Source of the DNA: Terriglobia bacterium | GTDB lineage: Bacteria > Acidobacteriota > Terriglobia > Acidiferrales > UBA7541 | Reading direction: 5' to 3' | NCBI GenBank assembly: GCA_963695545.1 | Contig: OY968796.1 | Location: 1,536,001-1,600,000 of the forward strand | DNA length: 64,000 bases | Shown: piece by piece, positions 31,464 through 39,910 of the stretch | How positions within the stretch are numbered: position 1 is the first letter of the stretch | Layout of the letters: the number at the start of each line of letters is the position of its first letter | Made by a program: the position numbers and the translations under genes | The notes under the pieces: generated by a model | Told to the model about the DNA's origin: nothing | The model's input: the letters and a program-made list of their open reading frames with translations, nothing else | Databases searched by the model: none

Positions 31464-31492
31464 TTGACATTCCGCACTTGATCGACAAAGAT
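31464..31492 (+). promoter_or_regulatory. Putative promoter for riboswitch leader
   Basis: TTGACA 31464-31469, 17 nt, weak -10 AAAGAT; would start transcription just before the aptamer. Confidence 0.5.
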
Positions 31493-31498
31493 TCCCCA

Positions 31499-31549
31499 AA
31501 GGTGTTGGAGTTCACCGTAACCGCCCTACTGGGCAGATAACTCCTACGA
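31499..31549 (+). ncRNA. Fluoride (crcB) riboswitch aptamer, variant
   Basis: GGTGTTGGAGTTCACCGTAACCGCCCTACTGGGCAGATAACTCCTAC: P1 GGTG/CACC, pseudoknot GGAGTT/AACTCC, P2 GCCC/GGGC, AAC linker and CTAC tail as in the crcB motif. Confidence 0.85.
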
Positions 31550-31582
31550 GGGTTTTTTCGTGGTGAGGGGTTTTCTGCTTTT
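31539..31582 (+). terminator. Riboswitch expression-platform terminator
   Basis: AACTCCT (31539-45) pairs AGGGGTT (31566-72); ACGAG pairs TTCGT; 4-nt bulge; followed by TTCTGCTTTT; excludes the aptamer pseudoknot. Confidence 0.65.
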
Positions 31583-31684
31583 GCGCTCGCTCGCTTCTCC
31601 ATTTTTCTCTCAATTCCCCTTCTTCCGCCTCGTTCTCTGTCCGCGCGCGATTGCTGAAGATCCGCGTTCGCCGGCGAAAATTGC

Positions 31685-33745
31685 ATGAGTTCCGAACCGC
31701 GCAATCCCCCCGAACTAAATCTATCGCAGAAGCGCCGTCTGACGGTGACGTGTCAGCACATCGATAAGCAACTCACGGATGTCGAAGCCGTCTTGAACCA
31801 GAGCGCGTCGAAGGCCGCGTTCCCGAAGTATCGGTCCGAGATTCCCCTGGCCGAGCGAAGAACCATCGAAGGCTACATCGCCCGGATTCGCGCGCAGTTG
31901 CTCCGCGTGCTCGATGGTCAGCGCATTGAGAAGCCCGCGCCGGTCATCTCGCCGGTTCACGCCATCCACGTGAACTTAACCTTCATCGCCATCGCGGCCG
32001 AGGAGCTCTTTCCCCAATACATGCGCGGCTACGGCGAGCTCCCCGAGCCGCTCGCGGCCGAATTAAACGGCATCGCCGGAGAATTGTTGGGGCTCGTGTC
32101 CAAGTTGGATCGATACGTCGGCGCCGGCCTCGGCGAAGATCTAAAAGAGCGCCTCGAACGCCTCGAGAAAACCAGCGATGAATCCACCCTCCTGCGCAAG
32201 ATTGAACGAATAGTTTCCGCTCGCGGCATGGTCGAGTATCGCCAAGCCATCTCGAATATCCTCGACCGCGCGGAGGACCAGACTTTCGAGGTAGCCGTTT
32301 TCGGTCGCGTGAGTTCCGGAAAGTCTTCCCTGCTCAATGCCATCCTCGACACCGCGATTCTCCCCGTGGGCGTCACGCCGGTCACCGCCGTGCCCACGCG
32401 AATCGTTTATGGCCCGCGCGCCTCTCTCACGGTGCGTTTTGCCGAGCGGCCCTCGCGGTCGCTCGATATCGCCCGACTGCCGGAATTCGCCACCGAGCAG
32501 GGAAATCCCGGCAACCAGCGCCACGTCAGCCGGATCGTCGTCGAACTCCCCGCGGCGCGCCTCCAGAATGGCGTGAGCTTCGTCGATACGCCGGGCCTCG
32601 GTTCCCTGGCCACAAGCGGCGCTGCCGAAACTCTGGCCTATTTGCCCAAGTGCGATCTTGGAGTTGTATTGATCGACGCGGGCTCGAGTCTGACGCCCGG
32701 TGACATCCACACCATCGACGCGCTTCAGCAAGCGGCAATTCCCGCCGCGGTGCTGCTCAGCAAGGCGGACTTGCTGAGCGACGCGGATCGCGCGCGCATG
32801 GTCGCCTATATCTCCGAACAGTTGTCCACAGAGTGTCACGCGGAGCTAGCCGCGCACCCCGTCAGCGCGCTCCCTTCTCATCGCGAAATGCTCGATGTTT
32901 GGTTTCGCGCCGAGATTCTGCCGCTCTATGAACGCAGCCAGGAATTGCGCGCTGCATCCTTGAAACGAAAAGTCGGAGCGCTGCGCGATGCCGTCGCGTC
33001 TTCTCTTGCCGCGCGTCTCGGTCCTGGTTCAGGCGCGGCGATCCCGCCCGTGGAAAAACTTCGCGCGGCGGAGTCGCGCCTTCGCGCAGCGCACGGCGCA
33101 ATTGAAGCCATGGCGCGAGCTGTCGATCAGGAAACCGAAAGCATGCCTTCGCAGATTCAAGAGCCAATCGAAGCGGCCGCAGCCGAACTCATCGAATTGT
33201 GGCGCGGAGCGAAGGACTCGCTCGCCTCTCCTGGCGCGGTTGCGCGCGGTGCGATCGTCCGTGCAATTCAATCCCGCGTCCAGCGCATGCGCAAACAGAT
33301 GGAGTCGCTGGCGGAAAGCTTGTGGCGAGAGCTCGATGCGTCCGCCGAAGCGCTGGAAATTCCCGACAAGCCGAGCCGCGAGGAATTCGCATCCCTCGTT
33401 CGGGAATTGCCGGTTTTTGACGCTCCCGTGACGATCGCGAACTTGCGATTGCGCAAACCGGCGAGTCTCACGCTCCTCGGCAAACGAGTCGCGCGGGAAA
33501 TGCTGCGGCGTAAGCTGATGCGGGATCTCGCTTCATCGCTGGCCGTCGCGGTCCAAACCTACGCGGGATTGCTGCGCAAGTCGGCGCTGGCCGTCTTACA
33601 GCACCTGCGCGCGCATTTTGAATCCTATGCTGATAGCTACCGCGCCCAGGCCGCCGCGTATCAGGATGGCCACGCCCTCACCGGCGCGGAAATCGATGCC
33701 ATTCGCTCCGATCTCGAGTCGCTCGGCGTACACATGCATCCGTAA
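31685..33745 (+). CDS. Bacterial dynamin-like GTPase
   Basis: G1 GRVSSGKS, LPVGVTPVT (G2), G3 VDTPG, G4 SKAD; helical N- and C-terminal regions. Confidence 0.88.
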   Translation: MSSEPRNPPELNLSQKRRLTVTCQHIDKQLTDVEAVLNQSASKAAFPKYRSEIPLAERRTIEGYIARIRAQLLRVLDGQRIEKPAPVISPVHAIHVNLTFIAIAAEELFPQYMRGYGELPEPLAAELNGIAGELLGLVSKLDRYVGAGLGEDLKERLERLEKTSDESTLLRKIERIVSARGMVEYRQAISNILDRAEDQTFEVAVFGRVSSGKSSLLNAILDTAILPVGVTPVTAVPTRIVYGPRASLTVRFAERPSRSLDIARLPEFATEQGNPGNQRHVSRIVVELPAARLQNGVSFVDTPGLGSLATSGAAETLAYLPKCDLGVVLIDAGSSLTPGDIHTIDALQQAAIPAAVLLSKADLLSDADRARMVAYISEQLSTECHAELAAHPVSALPSHREMLDVWFRAEILPLYERSQELRAASLKRKVGALRDAVASSLAARLGPGSGAAIPPVEKLRAAESRLRAAHGAIEAMARAVDQETESMPSQIQEPIEAAAAELIELWRGAKDSLASPGAVARGAIVRAIQSRVQRMRKQMESLAESLWRELDASAEALEIPDKPSREEFASLVRELPVFDAPVTIANLRLRKPASLTLLGKRVAREMLRRKLMRDLASSLAVAVQTYAGLLRKSALAVLQHLRAHFESYADSYRAQAAAYQDGHALTGAEIDAIRSDLESLGVHMHP

Positions 33746-33813
33746 CGCGCACGATCGCAGCGGACACCGCGCACGCGGTCGCCGCGATTTCTGATCGCGT
33801 CACGCAAGCGAAC

Positions 33814-34644
33814 ATGAAAACAGAAACGCGCGCAGCTCTCCCGGATCTGATCGGCAGAAATAGTGAACTTCGCCGTGTCCGCGCTGCCGTCCGCGCGAGA
33901 GAAAGTTTCCTGATCTGGGGTCCCGCGGACGCCGGAAAGACCGCTCTCGTGAAAAAGGCCATCTCGGAAGTCCCGGAGAGAGAGCGCCAGGGATGCATTT
34001 ATTGGAGCGGTGCGGCGAGCGTCCGCCAGTTGGCCGAGGAACTTCTGCGGCGTTTCTACGCCGCCGGGGATCCGTGCGTGCACAAGAAAGTACCCGAAGA
34101 CCGAAGCGGTCGCGAAACATCGGCCGACTCTTGGTTTCGGGATCGGTCGAGCGGACAGCTCAAAGCTCTCTTCTATCTCGCCGCCGCGAAGAGCCGCTAC
34201 GCGATTTTCCTGGATCACATGCCGCCCGCCACGCAACCCATGGCGCGTTTCCTGAAGCAGATCATCTGGAGATGCCACACCCCCGTCTATTTGCTCGCCC
34301 CAGGCTGTGATCGCGAGGATATCGGCCACGCGTGGAGCATTTACTTCGCCGAGCAATACCACATCGCAATCGGTCCTCTGTCTCCGGCGTTCGCCCGCGA
34401 ATTGCTCGAGCGATCCATCCGCCGTTTCGCCTTGGACCGATTTGATCTCTCCGGTTTTCGCGACGACATTCTGCGCATGAGCGGCCATCTCCCCGGCAGC
34501 CTCGTCAAAATGTGTGAATTGGCCGCCCAGCCCCGTTACCACTATGGAGACCAAATCAAAGTCAATCTCGTCCACGTCGACTATCTAATGCGCCGCGATC
34601 CTCTCGCCTCTCACCGCGCAGCCTTTACATCCGGCACATTCTGA
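33814..34644 (+). CDS. P-loop (AAA-like) ATP-binding protein
   Basis: LIGRNSEL, Walker A GPADAGKT, Walker B-like YAIFLDH, SGHLPG lid-like motif. Confidence 0.75.
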   Translation: MKTETRAALPDLIGRNSELRRVRAAVRARESFLIWGPADAGKTALVKKAISEVPERERQGCIYWSGAASVRQLAEELLRRFYAAGDPCVHKKVPEDRSGRETSADSWFRDRSSGQLKALFYLAAAKSRYAIFLDHMPPATQPMARFLKQIIWRCHTPVYLLAPGCDREDIGHAWSIYFAEQYHIAIGPLSPAFARELLERSIRRFALDRFDLSGFRDDILRMSGHLPGSLVKMCELAAQPRYHYGDQIKVNLVHVDYLMRRDPLASHRAAFTSGTF

Positions 34645-34685
34645 GTCACGCTGCATACGACCAGCAGGAGTGGCTAAAATCATGA
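34623..34685 (+). pseudogene. higB: C-terminal remnant of a HigB-family toxin
   Basis: Frame starting 34623 reads LYIRHILSHAAYDQQEWLKS*, matching the usual HigB ending (YIRH.LTH.EYD...W); stop overlaps higA ATG (ATGA); upstream of 34623 the frame is unrelated. Confidence 0.75.
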
Positions 34686-35068
34686 TTGCAGTGCCCGAAA
34701 AATACGCGCTCGAAGTCGGCTCCCCCACGCCGATCAAATCCGAGCACCAACATGACCAATTCCTTTCCGTCTTGGACAAGCTGGCCGGCAAGGAACGTCC
34801 AACGCCTGAAGAAGTGAAATATGCCGAAGTCTTGATCACACTGATCGAAGCGTATGAAGAAGAGCGTTACGCCATTCCCGAAGCTCCCCCGATCGAAATC
34901 CTCCGCGCATTGATGTCCGCCAACGATCTCCGTCAAAAAGACCTCGTCCCGATCTTCGGCTCCGAAAGCATCGTATCCGAAATCCTCCACAAGAAACGCG
35001 ACCTCAACAAATCCCATATCTCCAAATTGAGCAAGCGATTCCAGATTTCTCCCGCCGCGTTTTTCTAA
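34682..35068 (+). CDS. higA: HigA-family HTH antitoxin
   Basis: LITLIEAYEEE, LMSANDLRQKDLVPIFGSESIVSEILHKKRDLNKSHISKLSKRF; AGGAG upstream. Confidence 0.88.
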   Translation: MIAVPEKYALEVGSPTPIKSEHQHDQFLSVLDKLAGKERPTPEEVKYAEVLITLIEAYEEERYAIPEAPPIEILRALMSANDLRQKDLVPIFGSESIVSEILHKKRDLNKSHISKLSKRFQISPAAFF

Positions 35069-35136
35069 ATTCGCGGCCCGTCCTCCGCAATTCGAATGAA
35101 TTTCCACAGCCTATTCGAATAACCCACACGTTATCA

Positions 35137-35166
35137 TTGACATCCGCGCCATAACTGTGTTATCCT
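35137..35166 (+). promoter_or_regulatory. Sigma70-type promoter with extended -10
   Basis: TTGACA 35137-35142, 18 nt, TG-t-TATCCT (35158-35166); ATG at 35172. Confidence 0.6.
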
Positions 35167-35277
35167 TCCGCATGACCCACGAACACACGCCCGCGCCGTC
35201 CAGCGTAACGTCTCGCCTAAGCGCACCCCGCGATCCCGCCGCCTCCGGATTCGCCCCACCCCGCCTTTTCCCATCGC

Positions 35278-35467
35278 ACAATTTGCATTCTTCTGCACAA
35301 AATAGCCCCTCCAACCCATTTATTTTCAGTCGATTGCAAATGAGTGCGCATCTCATTGATACAACTCAATATCAACACATTTATTTTCACACTCATCCGC
35401 ACTCTTTCGCTGGAAGTCCCTTATTTACATCATTTTACGTATTTCATACCGGGGGTATATATACCCC
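35278..35467. repeat. AT-rich element with internal direct repeats and terminal palindrome
   Basis: CAACCCATTTATTTTCA (35312-28) and CAACACATTTATTTTCA (35373-89), degenerate third copy at 35414-29; GGGGTATATATACCCC at 35452-67. Confidence 0.6.
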
Positions 35468-35517
35468 AAGCAACTCCTCTGCGGCGCCCGCGCCCTTCGG
35501 AGCTACAATAGGACCCT

Positions 35518-37766: not shown

Positions 37767-38405
37767 ATGTTCTTCGCGCTCTTTCGGTCTCCGGCTCGTG
37801 GTCGGCTCCTCGCTGCGACTTTCGCATGCGCGCTCGCCGCAGCCTCCGTCCTCGGTGGATGCAAGCGCTCCCAGCCGGCCGAAGAGGAAGCGCCGATCGA
37901 TCAGGCCACGATTCCTTTCTCAAATGCCGACCAACTCCGTCCGCTGAACCCAACTCAATACGAAGTGCTGCAACTCGCCGAAGTGAAGCAGGCCGGTCTC
38001 TCCGATTCAGCCTGCCTCGAGTTGATTCAACTCGCCCGGAAATCGGGCCAGCCATTTTCCGACGGCGATTCAATCGCGCAATTGCTCGGCGCCGGTGAAA
38101 GCCCGGACATGGTTCTCCAGCTCGCGCGCATGGGCGAGCTCGGCGTGTGGTCGGGCCAGGTCCTCGCCATGCATCTCGCGAACATTCCTGACTCCATCAT
38201 CCTCGACGTCGCGCGCCGCCGCGCCGCCGGAGAGCCGTCGCTCTCCGGCGACATGATTGCCCAGTTGCGCGATGCCGGATACACGCAAGCGCAAATCACG
38301 GAGCTGCTGGACAAGGGCACAACCGACCCCGAAGCCCAGAAGATTCTCGATTACCATCACCGCGCCACGGCCCAATTCGTCAGGAACTCTCGCCGCAGGC
38401 ACTGA
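37767..38405 (+). CDS. Hypothetical lipoprotein
   Basis: Lipobox-like VLGGC; repeated short helices (KQAGLSD, HLANIPD, RDAGYTQ); stop overlaps next ATG. Confidence 0.7.
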   Translation: MFFALFRSPARGRLLAATFACALAAASVLGGCKRSQPAEEEAPIDQATIPFSNADQLRPLNPTQYEVLQLAEVKQAGLSDSACLELIQLARKSGQPFSDGDSIAQLLGAGESPDMVLQLARMGELGVWSGQVLAMHLANIPDSIILDVARRRAAGEPSLSGDMIAQLRDAGYTQAQITELLDKGTTDPEAQKILDYHHRATAQFVRNSRRRH

Positions 38406-39910
38406 TGAACGCCAGAACTTTGCGCCGCTCGCGCCGTCTTCTTTGTTTTTTGCTCGTGATGCCCGCTGCGGCGGGCTTGACGAGTTGCGCCGTGCCGCTC
38501 GGCGCCGGGTTCCATCTGGATGCGCGCGAAATTCAAGTTCGTTCGCAGCCTTCCGATCCGCCGGTGCTGCATGTTCTCGTCAGCGACCGCTTGGCAAACG
38601 TCGGCAATCGCCCGCTTGATTCGCTGATTATCGAAATGCCCTCCGGATCGACGTTCGGTCTAAGTAATCTGCGCGCCACCGTCGACGGCGAAGACGCCGA
38701 GCCCGTTTTGCTACCGGCCGCCGCGGCGCAGTTGTATCGCGTTCCTTTCGATCCCGCGTGGCCGGATGGCGCACCGAGCCGAATGCACAGCGTCGTTTTG
38801 GAATATGATCTCGCGCCGGCCGCCGGTGGACGCGGCACGATGGGTTTGGCCACGGAAAGTTTTCACGTGGCCGATCACTCGGCGTTTCCTCTTTGGCAGG
38901 TGCCACCCGGAGTTTTCTCGAAGGGCAATCCCGATGCGCACAACACGATTCTGCGCGTTTTGGCTCCTGCGGATGATCTCGTTGCGGCTTCGGGCGCCGA
39001 GGTCGGCAATCGGCATCCGAAACAGGAAGCCGATCGTGTGTTTCGCATCGCGCGCGGCGATCCGTATCCGTTTGTGGTGGCCGGCCAGTATCAGGAGAAG
39101 CAGATTGACGCATCCGGACGCAGCGTAGTTTTTTGGACGCTCGCGACGTTGGACGCAGACGCTGCGCAGCCACTGGCCTCGCGGCTCGCGATTGCGCGCG
39201 GCGCATACGAAAAGTTTTTCGGCCGCGGCCCGGGCAAAGTAGATGCGACGCTTCGCGTCGTCGAAACCCAGGAATCCATTCCGGCGGAATTCGGCGCGAG
39301 CGACGATCCGGGCGGCGCGTCATTTCCCGGTGGCGTCCTGCTCGATTCGCGTGCCTTCGCGGCAGGGCTTTCGAGCGAGCCGGTTCTCGAACTCGCCGAA
39401 TACGAACTGGCGCGCTCATGGTTCGGCTGGATCGTGCGCCCCAATCCCGCCGCGCAGATTCTAATGGGACGCGGCGCCGGCCTTTATGCCGTCACACTGG
39501 CGGCGCGCGCGCGCGGCGGTGAGTCCGAGCGCGACGCCGCGGTCGCGGATTTGGTGCGGCGTTACCAGAACGCGCGGCAGCGCGCGGCGGACCGCCCGTT
39601 GCTTGAGCCGGCGACGGGATATCCGCACGAGCAACGCGTCGCCAGCGGCTACAAGGCCGCGCTGTTTTTCGTCGCGCTTGAGGAGCGCGCTGGAACCGAT
39701 CCGATGCGCCGCGCGATGCATCGCGTGGTTCACGACATGGCCGGCAAAGAAGTCGGCGCCAACGAATTGCGTTCGGCGGTGGAGGCCGAAACGCACCAGA
39801 GCTTCGCGGAATTTTTCCGCACATGGCTCAACCAGCCGGGAATACCGGCGGCATTTTTGGCGGCGCATCAGGCGGGTGCTTCCGCGACGGTTGCACCGCG
39901 CGGGCGCTGA
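38405..39910 (+). CDS. M1 aminopeptidase-like lipoprotein with degenerate zinc site
   Basis: Lipobox LTSC; YELARSWFG in place of HExxHxWFG; GYKAALFFVALE..G, FFRTWLNQPGIP C-terminal M1 pattern. Confidence 0.7.
   Translation: MNARTLRRSRRLLCFLLVMPAAAGLTSCAVPLGAGFHLDAREIQVRSQPSDPPVLHVLVSDRLANVGNRPLDSLIIEMPSGSTFGLSNLRATVDGEDAEPVLLPAAAAQLYRVPFDPAWPDGAPSRMHSVVLEYDLAPAAGGRGTMGLATESFHVADHSAFPLWQVPPGVFSKGNPDAHNTILRVLAPADDLVAASGAEVGNRHPKQEADRVFRIARGDPYPFVVAGQYQEKQIDASGRSVVFWTLATLDADAAQPLASRLAIARGAYEKFFGRGPGKVDATLRVVETQESIPAEFGASDDPGGASFPGGVLLDSRAFAAGLSSEPVLELAEYELARSWFGWIVRPNPAAQILMGRGAGLYAVTLAARARGGESERDAAVADLVRRYQNARQRAADRPLLEPATGYPHEQRVASGYKAALFFVALEERAGTDPMRRAMHRVVHDMAGKEVGANELRSAVEAETHQSFAEFFRTWLNQPGIPAAFLAAHQAGASATVAPRGR

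Follow-up and report, generated by a model that had tools for sequence, protein, structure and literature searches.

A fluoride riboswitch, a dynamin-like GTPase and an AAA+/STAND-like ATPase in a Terriglobia bacterium: a possible fluoride-inducible operon for membrane maintenance

A fluoride riboswitch, a gene for a dynamin-like protein (DLP) and a gene for a small ATPase follow one another on the forward strand of a 64,000-nucleotide stretch of the genome of a Terriglobia bacterium, probably from soil (phylum Acidobacteriota; GenBank assembly GCA_963695545.1, contig OY968796.1), which is referred to here as the window. The genome consists of a single 4.16-Mb contig, C1, of which the window is C1:1536001-1600000. 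An original prediction, made from the letters of the window, had read this arrangement as a fluoride-stress system based on membrane remodelling. Comparison of the operon with its relatives indicates that the juxtaposition of riboswitch and dynamin is more than chance, and that the operon may link fluoride sensing to the maintenance of membranes.

Organisation of the locus

The first gene after the riboswitch starts with ATG 126 nt past the T-run of the leader and encodes a dynamin-like GTPase, here termed DLP-A, in which residues 203-340 match Pfam Dynamin_N with 76.1 bits against a cut-off of 27. It is the sole strong Dynamin_N gene of the genome. After a gap of exactly 68 bp comes the second gene, whose product carries a Walker A motif. 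The identity of both genes, their spacing and the intact G1-G4 motifs of the GTPase had been read correctly in the original prediction, and their coordinates are collected in Table 1.

Table 1. Features of the riboswitch-dynamin-ATPase operon in the window
Feature	Coordinates	Strand	Basis
Candidate -35 hexamer TTGACA	31464-31469	+	Read from sequence; ~22 nt before aptamer
Fluoride riboswitch aptamer (crcB motif, RF01734)	31492-31553	+	Rfam covariance model
Intrinsic terminator, expression platform (predicted)	31523-31558	+	Minimum-free-energy folds
DLP-A, dynamin-like GTPase, 686 aa	31685-33745	+	Open reading frame, Pfam Dynamin_N, AlphaFold2 model
DLP-A N-terminal helical domain, residues 1 to ~160	31685-32164	+	No Pfam; clade-specific to DLP-A
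DLP-A GTPase domain, residues about 198-395	32276-32869	+	Pfam, motifs, model
DLP-A trunk tip, candidate lipid-interacting loop, residues about 558-600	33356-33484	+	Model secondary structure, conservation
AAA+/STAND-like ATPase, 276 aa	33814-34644	+	Open reading frame, Pfam AAA_16, AlphaFold2 model

The aptamer matches the Rfam model over its full length (model positions 1-64 of 64) and scores 42.0 bits (E 2.9e-08; gathering score 34), and the same site was recovered by a search of the whole genome; one tRNA is the only other structured RNA that Rfam reports across the 64 kb. The original prediction was right about the riboswitch and wrong about its start, placing it at 31501, which is 9 nt inside the aptamer. 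Across 13 aligned aptamers, P1 and P3 appear to covary: the pairs of P1 vary between GGUG/CACC and GGCG/CGCC and those of P3 among GCCC/GGGC, CCUCC/GGAGG and AUCUC/GAGAU, while GGAGUUC and ACUCCU are invariant or almost so. The window aptamer carries GUUGG at the position of the consensus GAUGG. The same variant is found in the riboswitch that precedes crcB in this genome, so it serves a canonical fluoride-channel operon in the same bacterium.

The putative expression platform is a hairpin at 31523-31553, in which GCCCU pairs with AGGGU around an inner stem, followed by a run of six T. The hairpin recruits two elements of the aptamer, the 5' strand of P3 and the 3' strand of the pseudoknot; since it shares these strands it would exclude the ligand-bound fold, as expected of an ON switch. 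A terminator-type ON design is usual for the crcB-motif class (Weinberg 2010, PMC2864571), and the antitermination logic proposed for the window leader would follow this usual design. The tail GAGGGTTTTTT is common to the leaders of the window, L013, L016 and L006. Upstream of the aptamer, a perfect TTGACA is followed 17 nt on by a poor -10 element, AAAGAT; a consensus promoter scan did not report the hexamer, and its role as the operon promoter is possible.

Linkage of riboswitch and dynamin across the phylum

The survey of homologues for upstream riboswitches, which had been proposed with the original prediction, was carried out on three independent samples. Its counts rest on the coordinates of search matches, not on open reading frame (ORF) calls; longest-ORF calling picks wrong-strand shadow ORFs in some high-GC loci (e.g. 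L033, L036).

The broadest sample comprised 150 genomes drawn evenly from the phylum and yielded 31 dynamin matches at E<=1e-10 in 27 genomes, together with 71 riboswitch matches outside the genome of the window; these come from 45 genomes, and 64 exceed the cut-off. For 26 of the 31 dynamin matches, a riboswitch is present on the same strand no more than 5 kb upstream. The distance is at most 700 nt for 17 of these, 701-3000 nt for eight (two of which are second dynamins behind a first) and 4.8 kb for one. Of the five matches that have no such riboswitch, two are restricted to the N-terminal domain, one starts where its contig begins or ends, and two (G092, G098) are clear exceptions. Counted from the riboswitches, a dynamin is found within 5 kb downstream for 24 of the 64 above the threshold, or 24/63 if G063, a genome flagged as unpublished whose riboswitch has no dynamin, is excluded. 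As a control, dynamins of other types in the same genomes, which match Pfam Dynamin_N only, were examined, and none of the seven (G147, G054, G079, G158, G146, G129 and contig 81 of G095) lies on a contig bearing a riboswitch. Related genomes are not independent of one another; nonetheless, linkage is spread over no fewer than 15 family codes of the sample.

A pattern scan, with one genome taken per species, provided ten loci from other genomes. In eight (L013-L017, L019-L021) the riboswitch stands 60-450 nt before the homologue on the same strand, and the linkage persists down to 31% protein identity. The two loci that have no riboswitch (L018, L022) show matches lacking the N terminus, and that of L022 looks split into two ORFs. 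About 3 kb downstream of this broken-looking homologue, an nhaA-I riboswitch (RF03057) was recorded at L022:10352-10406 (+), with 48.3 bits against 37.

Among 40 relatives of the same genus, family and order, DLP-A was matched in five (G009, G010, G017, G021, G023). Two of these (G017, G021) have a same-strand riboswitch upstream of a full-length homologue, and G023 has one upstream of an ORF that consists of the N-terminal domain only. The match downstream of the riboswitch of G010 is a weak and doubtful one to the N terminus (E 4.3e-4, with one internal TGA), and the short dynamin of G009 has no riboswitch within 1.5 kb. A chance juxtaposition left behind by gene loss, which the original prediction had named as the outcome that would undo it, is contradicted by these results, as homologues are linked in all three samples.

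Composition of the module and fluoride islands

A quick maximum-likelihood tree of 22 dynamins separates two clades with a support of 100 in the Shimodaira-Hasegawa-like approximate likelihood ratio test (SH-aLRT). The DLP-A clade, which includes the window protein, has members of ~680-760 aa that carry an N-terminal domain; members of the other clade, DLP-B, have ~550-670 aa. The fullest operons (L013, L016) run riboswitch, DLP-A, optionally DUF190, ATPase and DLP-B, and full DLP-A and DLP-B genes on one operon or strand were found in L013, L016, G186 and G049. G017 and G021 have another dynamin match 2-3 kb past DLP-A. DLP-B stands behind a divergent riboswitch of its own in L019 and L021, and L020 breaks off inside the equivalent ORF; no DLP-B follows DLP-A and the ATPase in L017, L020, L021 and L030. 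The relative G023 presents the module in a split form: riboswitch, N-terminal-domain ORF (181 aa), two DUF190 genes, an ATPase sharing 49% identity with the family, and DLP-B. In DLP-B relatives, residues around 455-476 form a hydrophobic stretch, whose assumed position is close to the tip of the trunk, like that of a paddle.

The ATPase gene takes a regular place in these operons, immediately 3' of DLP-A in L014, L016, L017, L019, L020 and L030, and further downstream, immediately 5' of DLP-B, in L013 and G023. Its description in the original prediction as a P-loop ATPase stands, and can be extended: the protein is AAA+/STAND-like and itself a conserved component of the module.

DLP-B is the component that the window lacks. 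Two near relatives of the window operon differ in this respect, since the module is complete in L013 (DLP-A 76% identical) and DLP-B is cut to its first ~95 residues in L014 (DLP-A 75% identical). A tblastn search of the window with four DLP-B proteins returned, besides the cross-match to DLP-A, nothing better than E 0.12. The idea in the original prediction that bacterial dynamins work as pairs is therefore inapplicable within the window, which holds one strong Dynamin_N gene and no remnant of a partner. By sequence comparison, the window operon is a reduced copy of a module widespread in Acidobacteriota, from which DLP-B has been lost.

Neighbouring genes, annotated with Pfam, place the dynamins among known fluoride genes. 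A riboswitch is followed by a dynamin, crcB and DUF190 in G089; by enolase and a dynamin in G095, where the stop of the one and the start of the other overlap; by crcB and, further downstream, a dynamin in G188; and by DLP-A and crcB in G021. In G179 the order is riboswitch, DLP-A, ATPase, and the opposite strand of the same contig carries a riboswitch, a Na+/H+ antiporter, USP and enolase. In G056 a riboswitch and dynamin lie on one strand, with a divergent riboswitch, enolase and a distant AAA_16 ATPase on the other, and in G119 a riboswitch and an MFS gene precede a DUF190-CBS gene and then a dynamin. Of these neighbours, CrcB, enolase, Na+/H+ antiporters and USP belong to the established fluoride regulon (PMC11139923, PMC5533749).

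The AAA_16 ATPase of G056 (L028:9424-10089 +) aligns with the family of the window ATPase over the N-terminal 119 columns with an hhalign probability of 96.6% and is possibly related to it. Its Walker A lysine is replaced by arginine (GIGRT), so that hydrolysis may be lost. Islands with three riboswitches were also observed (L017, L030/G179 contig 188, L029/G095 contig 18 and L031/G188 contig 7). They span 2 to 12 kb, with some divergent pairs less than 250 nt apart, and the genes under riboswitch control in them encode dynamins, enolase, PP2C phosphatase, Na+/H+ antiporter, USP and MFS as well as a P-II-like and a HIT protein.

Predicted structure of the two proteins

The GTPase motifs of DLP-A are G1 GRVSSGKS (207-214), G3 DTPG (301-304) and G4 SKAD (359-362); together with T231/T234 in the G2 region, they are invariant or almost so in 42 homologues. 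Homologues with 75-81% identity and equal length exist. An AlphaFold2 model built with 42 sequences reached a pLDDT (predicted local distance difference test) of 79.7 and a pTM (predicted TM-score) of 0.60. In this model, helical bundles corresponding to a neck and a trunk are formed from both sides of the GTPase domain. The closest known structure is IniA of Mycobacterium smegmatis (6j72), with a VIA-align Z of 22.3 over 464 aligned residues, model residues 163-682 superposing on IniA residues -1 to 588; Foldseek gives the same protein with E 5e-17 and TM 0.63 by target. Next come mitofusins, Cj-DLP1/2 and BDLP, the last with Z 17.4-17.9.

Between the two longest helices of the model, the trunk-tip stretch (~558-600) is predicted to be non-helical, basic and partly hydrophobic, and its conserved residues are P563, E567, F568, R573, P576, F578 and P592. 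By analogy, it may be the counterpart of the lipid-interacting loop of IniA. A hydrophobicity scan found no transmembrane-grade segment anywhere in DLP-A.

The N-terminal domain is modelled as six or seven bundled helices and has G115, Y116 and G117 among its invariant residues. Pfam has no family matching it, a sequence search of the PDB found no relative (top match DisA, E 0.28), and a structure search of the Atlas recovered, beyond its own family, nothing but helical proteins of weak resemblance (TM <0.4); the alignments with IniA, BDLP and mitofusin all begin at model residue 148 or later, leaving the domain uncovered. By these searches (Pfam, PDB sequence, Atlas), it is a domain with no known relative. 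When 1.84 billion representatives were searched with residues 1-195, relatives at E<=1e-3 numbered 875, in which the match is almost always N-terminal in proteins of ~680-710 aa. Stand-alone proteins of ~155-180 aa exist as well, namely Atlas clusters of 154-167 aa and the 181-aa ORF of G023 (L007), and these, with the split operon to which the latter belongs, show that the domain can stand by itself while staying linked to the module.

The model of the ATPase (pLDDT 90.6) shows an AAA+ fold with a helical lid. Its Pfam AAA_16 match is borderline, with 32.6 bits at a cut-off of 32.6. Foldseek lists TnsC, the archaeal Walker ATPase PAB2304, the small subunit of RFC, p97 D1, Orc1/Cdc6 and the NB-ARC of NLR proteins, all with E ~7e-6 or weaker. 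Walker A is GPADAGKT (36-43) and the Walker B region AIFLDH (130-135), in which D-H stands in place of D-E, the glutamate being absent. The family is compact (284 matches, ~270 aa), with G41, K42 and D134 invariant and GPADAGKT and LDH conserved.

As judged from these searches, neither protein is covered by a curated family of NCBIfam or PADLOC past general similarity. DLP-A scores far below the cut-offs of the NCBIfam models for DynA (NF052648, 34 bits vs 1600), CrfC (NF007368, 24 bits vs 1146) and LeoA (NF041922, 17.6 bits vs 325), and the PADLOC profiles LeoA and LeoBC match it with E 1.3e-11 and 5.7e-08. For the ATPase, NCBIfam, PADLOC and PDB profile searches gave P-loop-level matches only and no closer named family. 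A complex prediction for the two proteins with both alignments, which returned a score of 0.00 and a mark of 0.32, has no bearing either way.

Genomic setting

The genome has exactly two fluoride riboswitches. The second lies 240 kb away, directly before crcB (C1:1807295-1807636, the sole CrcB match of the genome), which is followed by a double and then a single DUF190 gene. Three CLC genes, at C1:39679, 1914968 and 3021226, are not near a riboswitch. The original prediction had stated that no Fluc/CrcB or CLC exporter occurs in the window; this holds for the window, but the organism is not exporter-free. Horizontal transfer of the operon was considered and is unsupported by base composition, the G+C content being 61.4% in the operon and 61.5% in the window. 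The distribution of the module is patchy: it is present in none of five genomes of the same genus, though these share the neighbouring relA/spoT with 77-87% DNA identity.

Some further features of the surroundings are recorded here. Just past the operon, two ORFs overlap on opposite strands, at 34646-35107 (-) and 34670-35068 (+), with 153 and 132 aa; they have no Pfam or NCBIfam match, their far end overlaps the start of a repeat, and they may not be genes. This dispersed intergenic repeat occupies ~35061-35469 between the ATPase gene and relA/spoT, in blocks at ~35084-35199 and ~35279-35467. It has more than 40 further sites in the genome, on both strands and with 70-88% identity, a few fragments shorter than 70 nt reaching 97%, and it also matches many sites in two genomes of the same genus. 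Downstream of relA/spoT, ORFs of 212 and 501 aa at 37767-39910 (+) gave no significant Pfam or NCBIfam match.

Discussion

Dynamin genes share operons and islands with crcB, enolase, DUF190, the Na+/H+ antiporter and USP, which argues that the window operon is a genuine part of the fluoride regulon and not a chance leftover. With the conserved riboswitch linkage, this bears out the fluoride half of the original prediction, and membership in the regulon is very probable. The reading favoured here goes further and describes a fluoride-inducible operon with a role in membrane maintenance; for this statement as a whole, the probability is roughly 50%.

According to this reading, at low fluoride the leader RNA would fold into the terminator hairpin with its U-run, and transcription would end ahead of the genes. 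Fluoride, as a Mg-F complex, would bind the aptamer, whose pseudoknot retains the 3' strand; the terminator would thus be blocked and RNA polymerase would proceed into DLP-A and the ATPase, so that both proteins would be made only under fluoride load. For such a response in vivo, the GUUGG variant shared with the aptamer of the genome's own crcB is an indirect sign. DLP-A would then act at the inner face of the cytoplasmic membrane. When the envelope is harmed by fluoride or HF, it would preserve or restore membrane integrity through fission, sealing or tethering, as demonstrated for IniA and proposed for DynA. The ATPase may tune or load it and, in other genomes, DLP-B would be its partner. 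Such upkeep of the membrane would run parallel to export via CrcB, which is under separate riboswitch control.

The role in membrane remodelling or repair is suggested by the likeness of the predicted fold to IniA and BDLP, and several reports are in keeping with it. IniA binds lipids via its trunk-tip loop, carries out GTP-dependent membrane fission and has a proposed role in plasma-membrane integrity (PMC6715688); DynA clusters on membranes following pore-forming agents (PMC12998192); and genes for membrane structure and integrity are up-regulated under fluoride stress in several bacteria (Stockbridge & Wackett 2024, PMC11139923).

Several points weigh against the favoured reading. The membrane as target, and the process carried out there, are drawn from analogy with other dynamins, and no segment of DLP-A is hydrophobic enough for insertion, so that membrane binding would depend on a basic loop like that of IniA. 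The terminator hairpin is only moderately stable: the fold of 31518-31562 has -11.7 kcal/mol and is no outlier against shuffled sequence (z -1.24). With no Walker B glutamate, ATP turnover by the ATPase is uncertain. The module is dispensable, given its absence from all five same-genus genomes, and with DLP-B missing here and truncated in L014 the window copy could be a decaying remnant with reduced function.

One alternative is a target other than the membrane. In such an account the module is equally induced by fluoride, and DLP-A and the ATPase would act, for example, on protein complexes, on the nucleoid or replisome (as for the dynamin-like CrfC), on ribosome assembly or on the assembly or turnover of Fluc. 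The lack of a membrane-inserting segment fits it, the N-terminal domain, of unknown fold class, could serve as an adaptor, and the ATPase is similar to proteins that load or remodel complexes of protein and DNA (TnsC, RFC, Orc1/Cdc6, p97). There are also weak, partial NCBIfam matches to CrfC and ribosome-assembly GTPases, but these are far under the cut-offs and confined to the P-loop region. As the entire predicted stalk, neck and trunk, superposes on the membrane remodellers IniA and BDLP, and DLP-B relatives have their hydrophobic stretch at ~455-476, presumably near the trunk tip, this account is considered rather unlikely. A different possibility is that the dynamin is overproduced to offset a GTPase cycle poisoned by fluoride, the protected function being a housekeeping one and not specific to fluoride. 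AlF4-, BeF3- and MgF3- complexes trap GTPases, dynamins included, in a transition-state-like form, and a GDP.AlF4- GTPase structure (7c1o) is among the fold matches of DLP-A. Enolase shares operons or islands with dynamins in G095, G056, G179 and L019, and overproduction of fluoride-inhibited enzymes is an accepted logic of the regulon (PMC11777429, PMC5533749), as for riboswitch-controlled copies of enolase and pyrophosphatase. Against this, the genome has no second, constitutive dynamin that would need a back-up, and 118 of 151 sampled genomes have no Dynamin_N match at E<=1e-12; with most genomes dynamin-free, a housekeeping need is doubtful. The ON switch of terminator type is moreover off by default, and the conserved ATPase and N-terminal domain are left unexplained, which makes compensation unlikely.

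Decay of the window copy, in a module that is functional in other lineages, draws on the absence of DLP-B from the genome, on the truncation in L014, which suggests ongoing loss in the lineage, and on the view that most bacterial DLPs are paired in operons and need their partner for function (PMC6104087). IniA, however, acts in vitro with no obligate pairing (PMC6715688). Both ORFs of the window are full length, the GTPase and Walker A motifs, the aptamer and the terminator are intact, and the homologues at 75-81% identity have the same length. An adjoining DLP-B is also missing beside DLP-A and the ATPase in L017, L020, L021 and L030, and DLP-B of L019 and L021 is under its own divergent riboswitch; a non-functional remnant is thus quite improbable. 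An AAA_16/STAND-like ATPase beside a GTPase is a common layout of defence islands, and the PADLOC matches of DLP-A could be taken to mean a Leo-type phage-defence dynamin system that lies behind a riboswitch incidentally, or by plain chance. Those matches, though, express no more than the general likeness of dynamins, many families of the phylum retain the linkage, which is specific to the DLP clades, the neighbours are fluoride genes and not defence genes, and the operon has the G+C content of its surroundings, so that chance or defence is extremely unlikely.

A bolder form of the favoured reading, membrane maintenance under fluoride, would see in the module a second axis of fluoride resistance in Acidobacteria, independent of exporters and composed of two dynamins, the N-terminal domain and the AAA+ ATPase. 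Fluoride would be both inducer and, as Mg- or Al-fluoride, a mimic of the gamma-phosphate that holds the GTPase, assembled on damaged membrane, in its transition-state form. The acid soils inhabited by such bacteria are rich in aluminium. This version is improbable, but if true, the toxic ion itself would trigger the sealing or shedding of injured membrane.

The bacterial fluoride response seems to include dynamins as a component that has gone unnoticed, and about one in three of the sampled Acidobacteriota riboswitches (24/64) lead to one, which adds a large gene class to fluoride biology. The structures of bacterial dynamins are well described, but what triggers them in nature and what they do is largely guesswork; in the present case a DLP clade arrives with a defined and easily applied chemical inducer, and its function is directly testable with NaF. 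The module suggests that fluoride harms the cell envelope, or some other target of dynamins, in bacteria of acid soils, where the entry of HF and aluminium-fluoride complexes matter most. Furthermore, two uncharacterised families, the DLP-A N-terminal domain and the ~270-aa ATPase, are now defined together with a physiological context.

Comparison with known systems

IniA of the mycobacterial iniBAC operon is the nearest structural counterpart. In both proteins, the GTPase domain is followed by neck and trunk bundles, the trunk tip is a non-helical loop, no transmembrane segment is present, and expression is brought about by stress rather than constitutive, if DLP-A is induced as proposed. The two share, however, only 15-19% sequence identity, and DLP-A has an extra N-terminal domain of ~160 residues. 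IniA is induced by cell-wall drugs (PMC6715688), a drug stress relayed via proteins, whereas the inducer of DLP-A would be fluoride, via an RNA switch. The partner of DLP-A is a small AAA+ ATPase and, unlike in iniBAC, no IniB-like gene is present.

The paired bacterial DLPs (BDLP of Nostoc, Cj-DLP1/2, DynA, LeoABC) have the dynamin fold in common with DLP-A. We know of none among these paired systems with a chemically defined inducer. The DLP-A and DLP-B paralogues of the relatives resemble the side-by-side pairs of other bacteria (PMC6104087), but differ in the ATPase gene that lies between the two dynamin genes of the module; the window genome holds one of the pair only.

With the known fluoride regulon the window operon shares the aptamer class and the terminator-type ON design. 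The genes listed for that regulon are crcB/Fluc, CLC-F, enolase, pyrophosphatase, Na+/H+ antiporter, USP, formate hydrogen lyase and mutS; dynamin-family GTPases and the ATPase are not named in it in the available portions of the sources examined. Neither 'dynamin' nor 'GTPase' occurs in the accessible text of the 2024 review of microbial fluoride resistance (PMC11139923), of the first description of the crcB motif (PMC2864571) or of a 2020 riboswitch review (PMC7266159). A full-text literature search, judged partly on titles and abstract openings, returned no link between fluoride riboswitches and dynamins, and a passing mention in the gene lists of Baker et al. 2012 is possible. The riboswitch class and the dynamin fold are thus known, while their link, the three-part module and the two unnamed protein families are apparently new in the literature searched.

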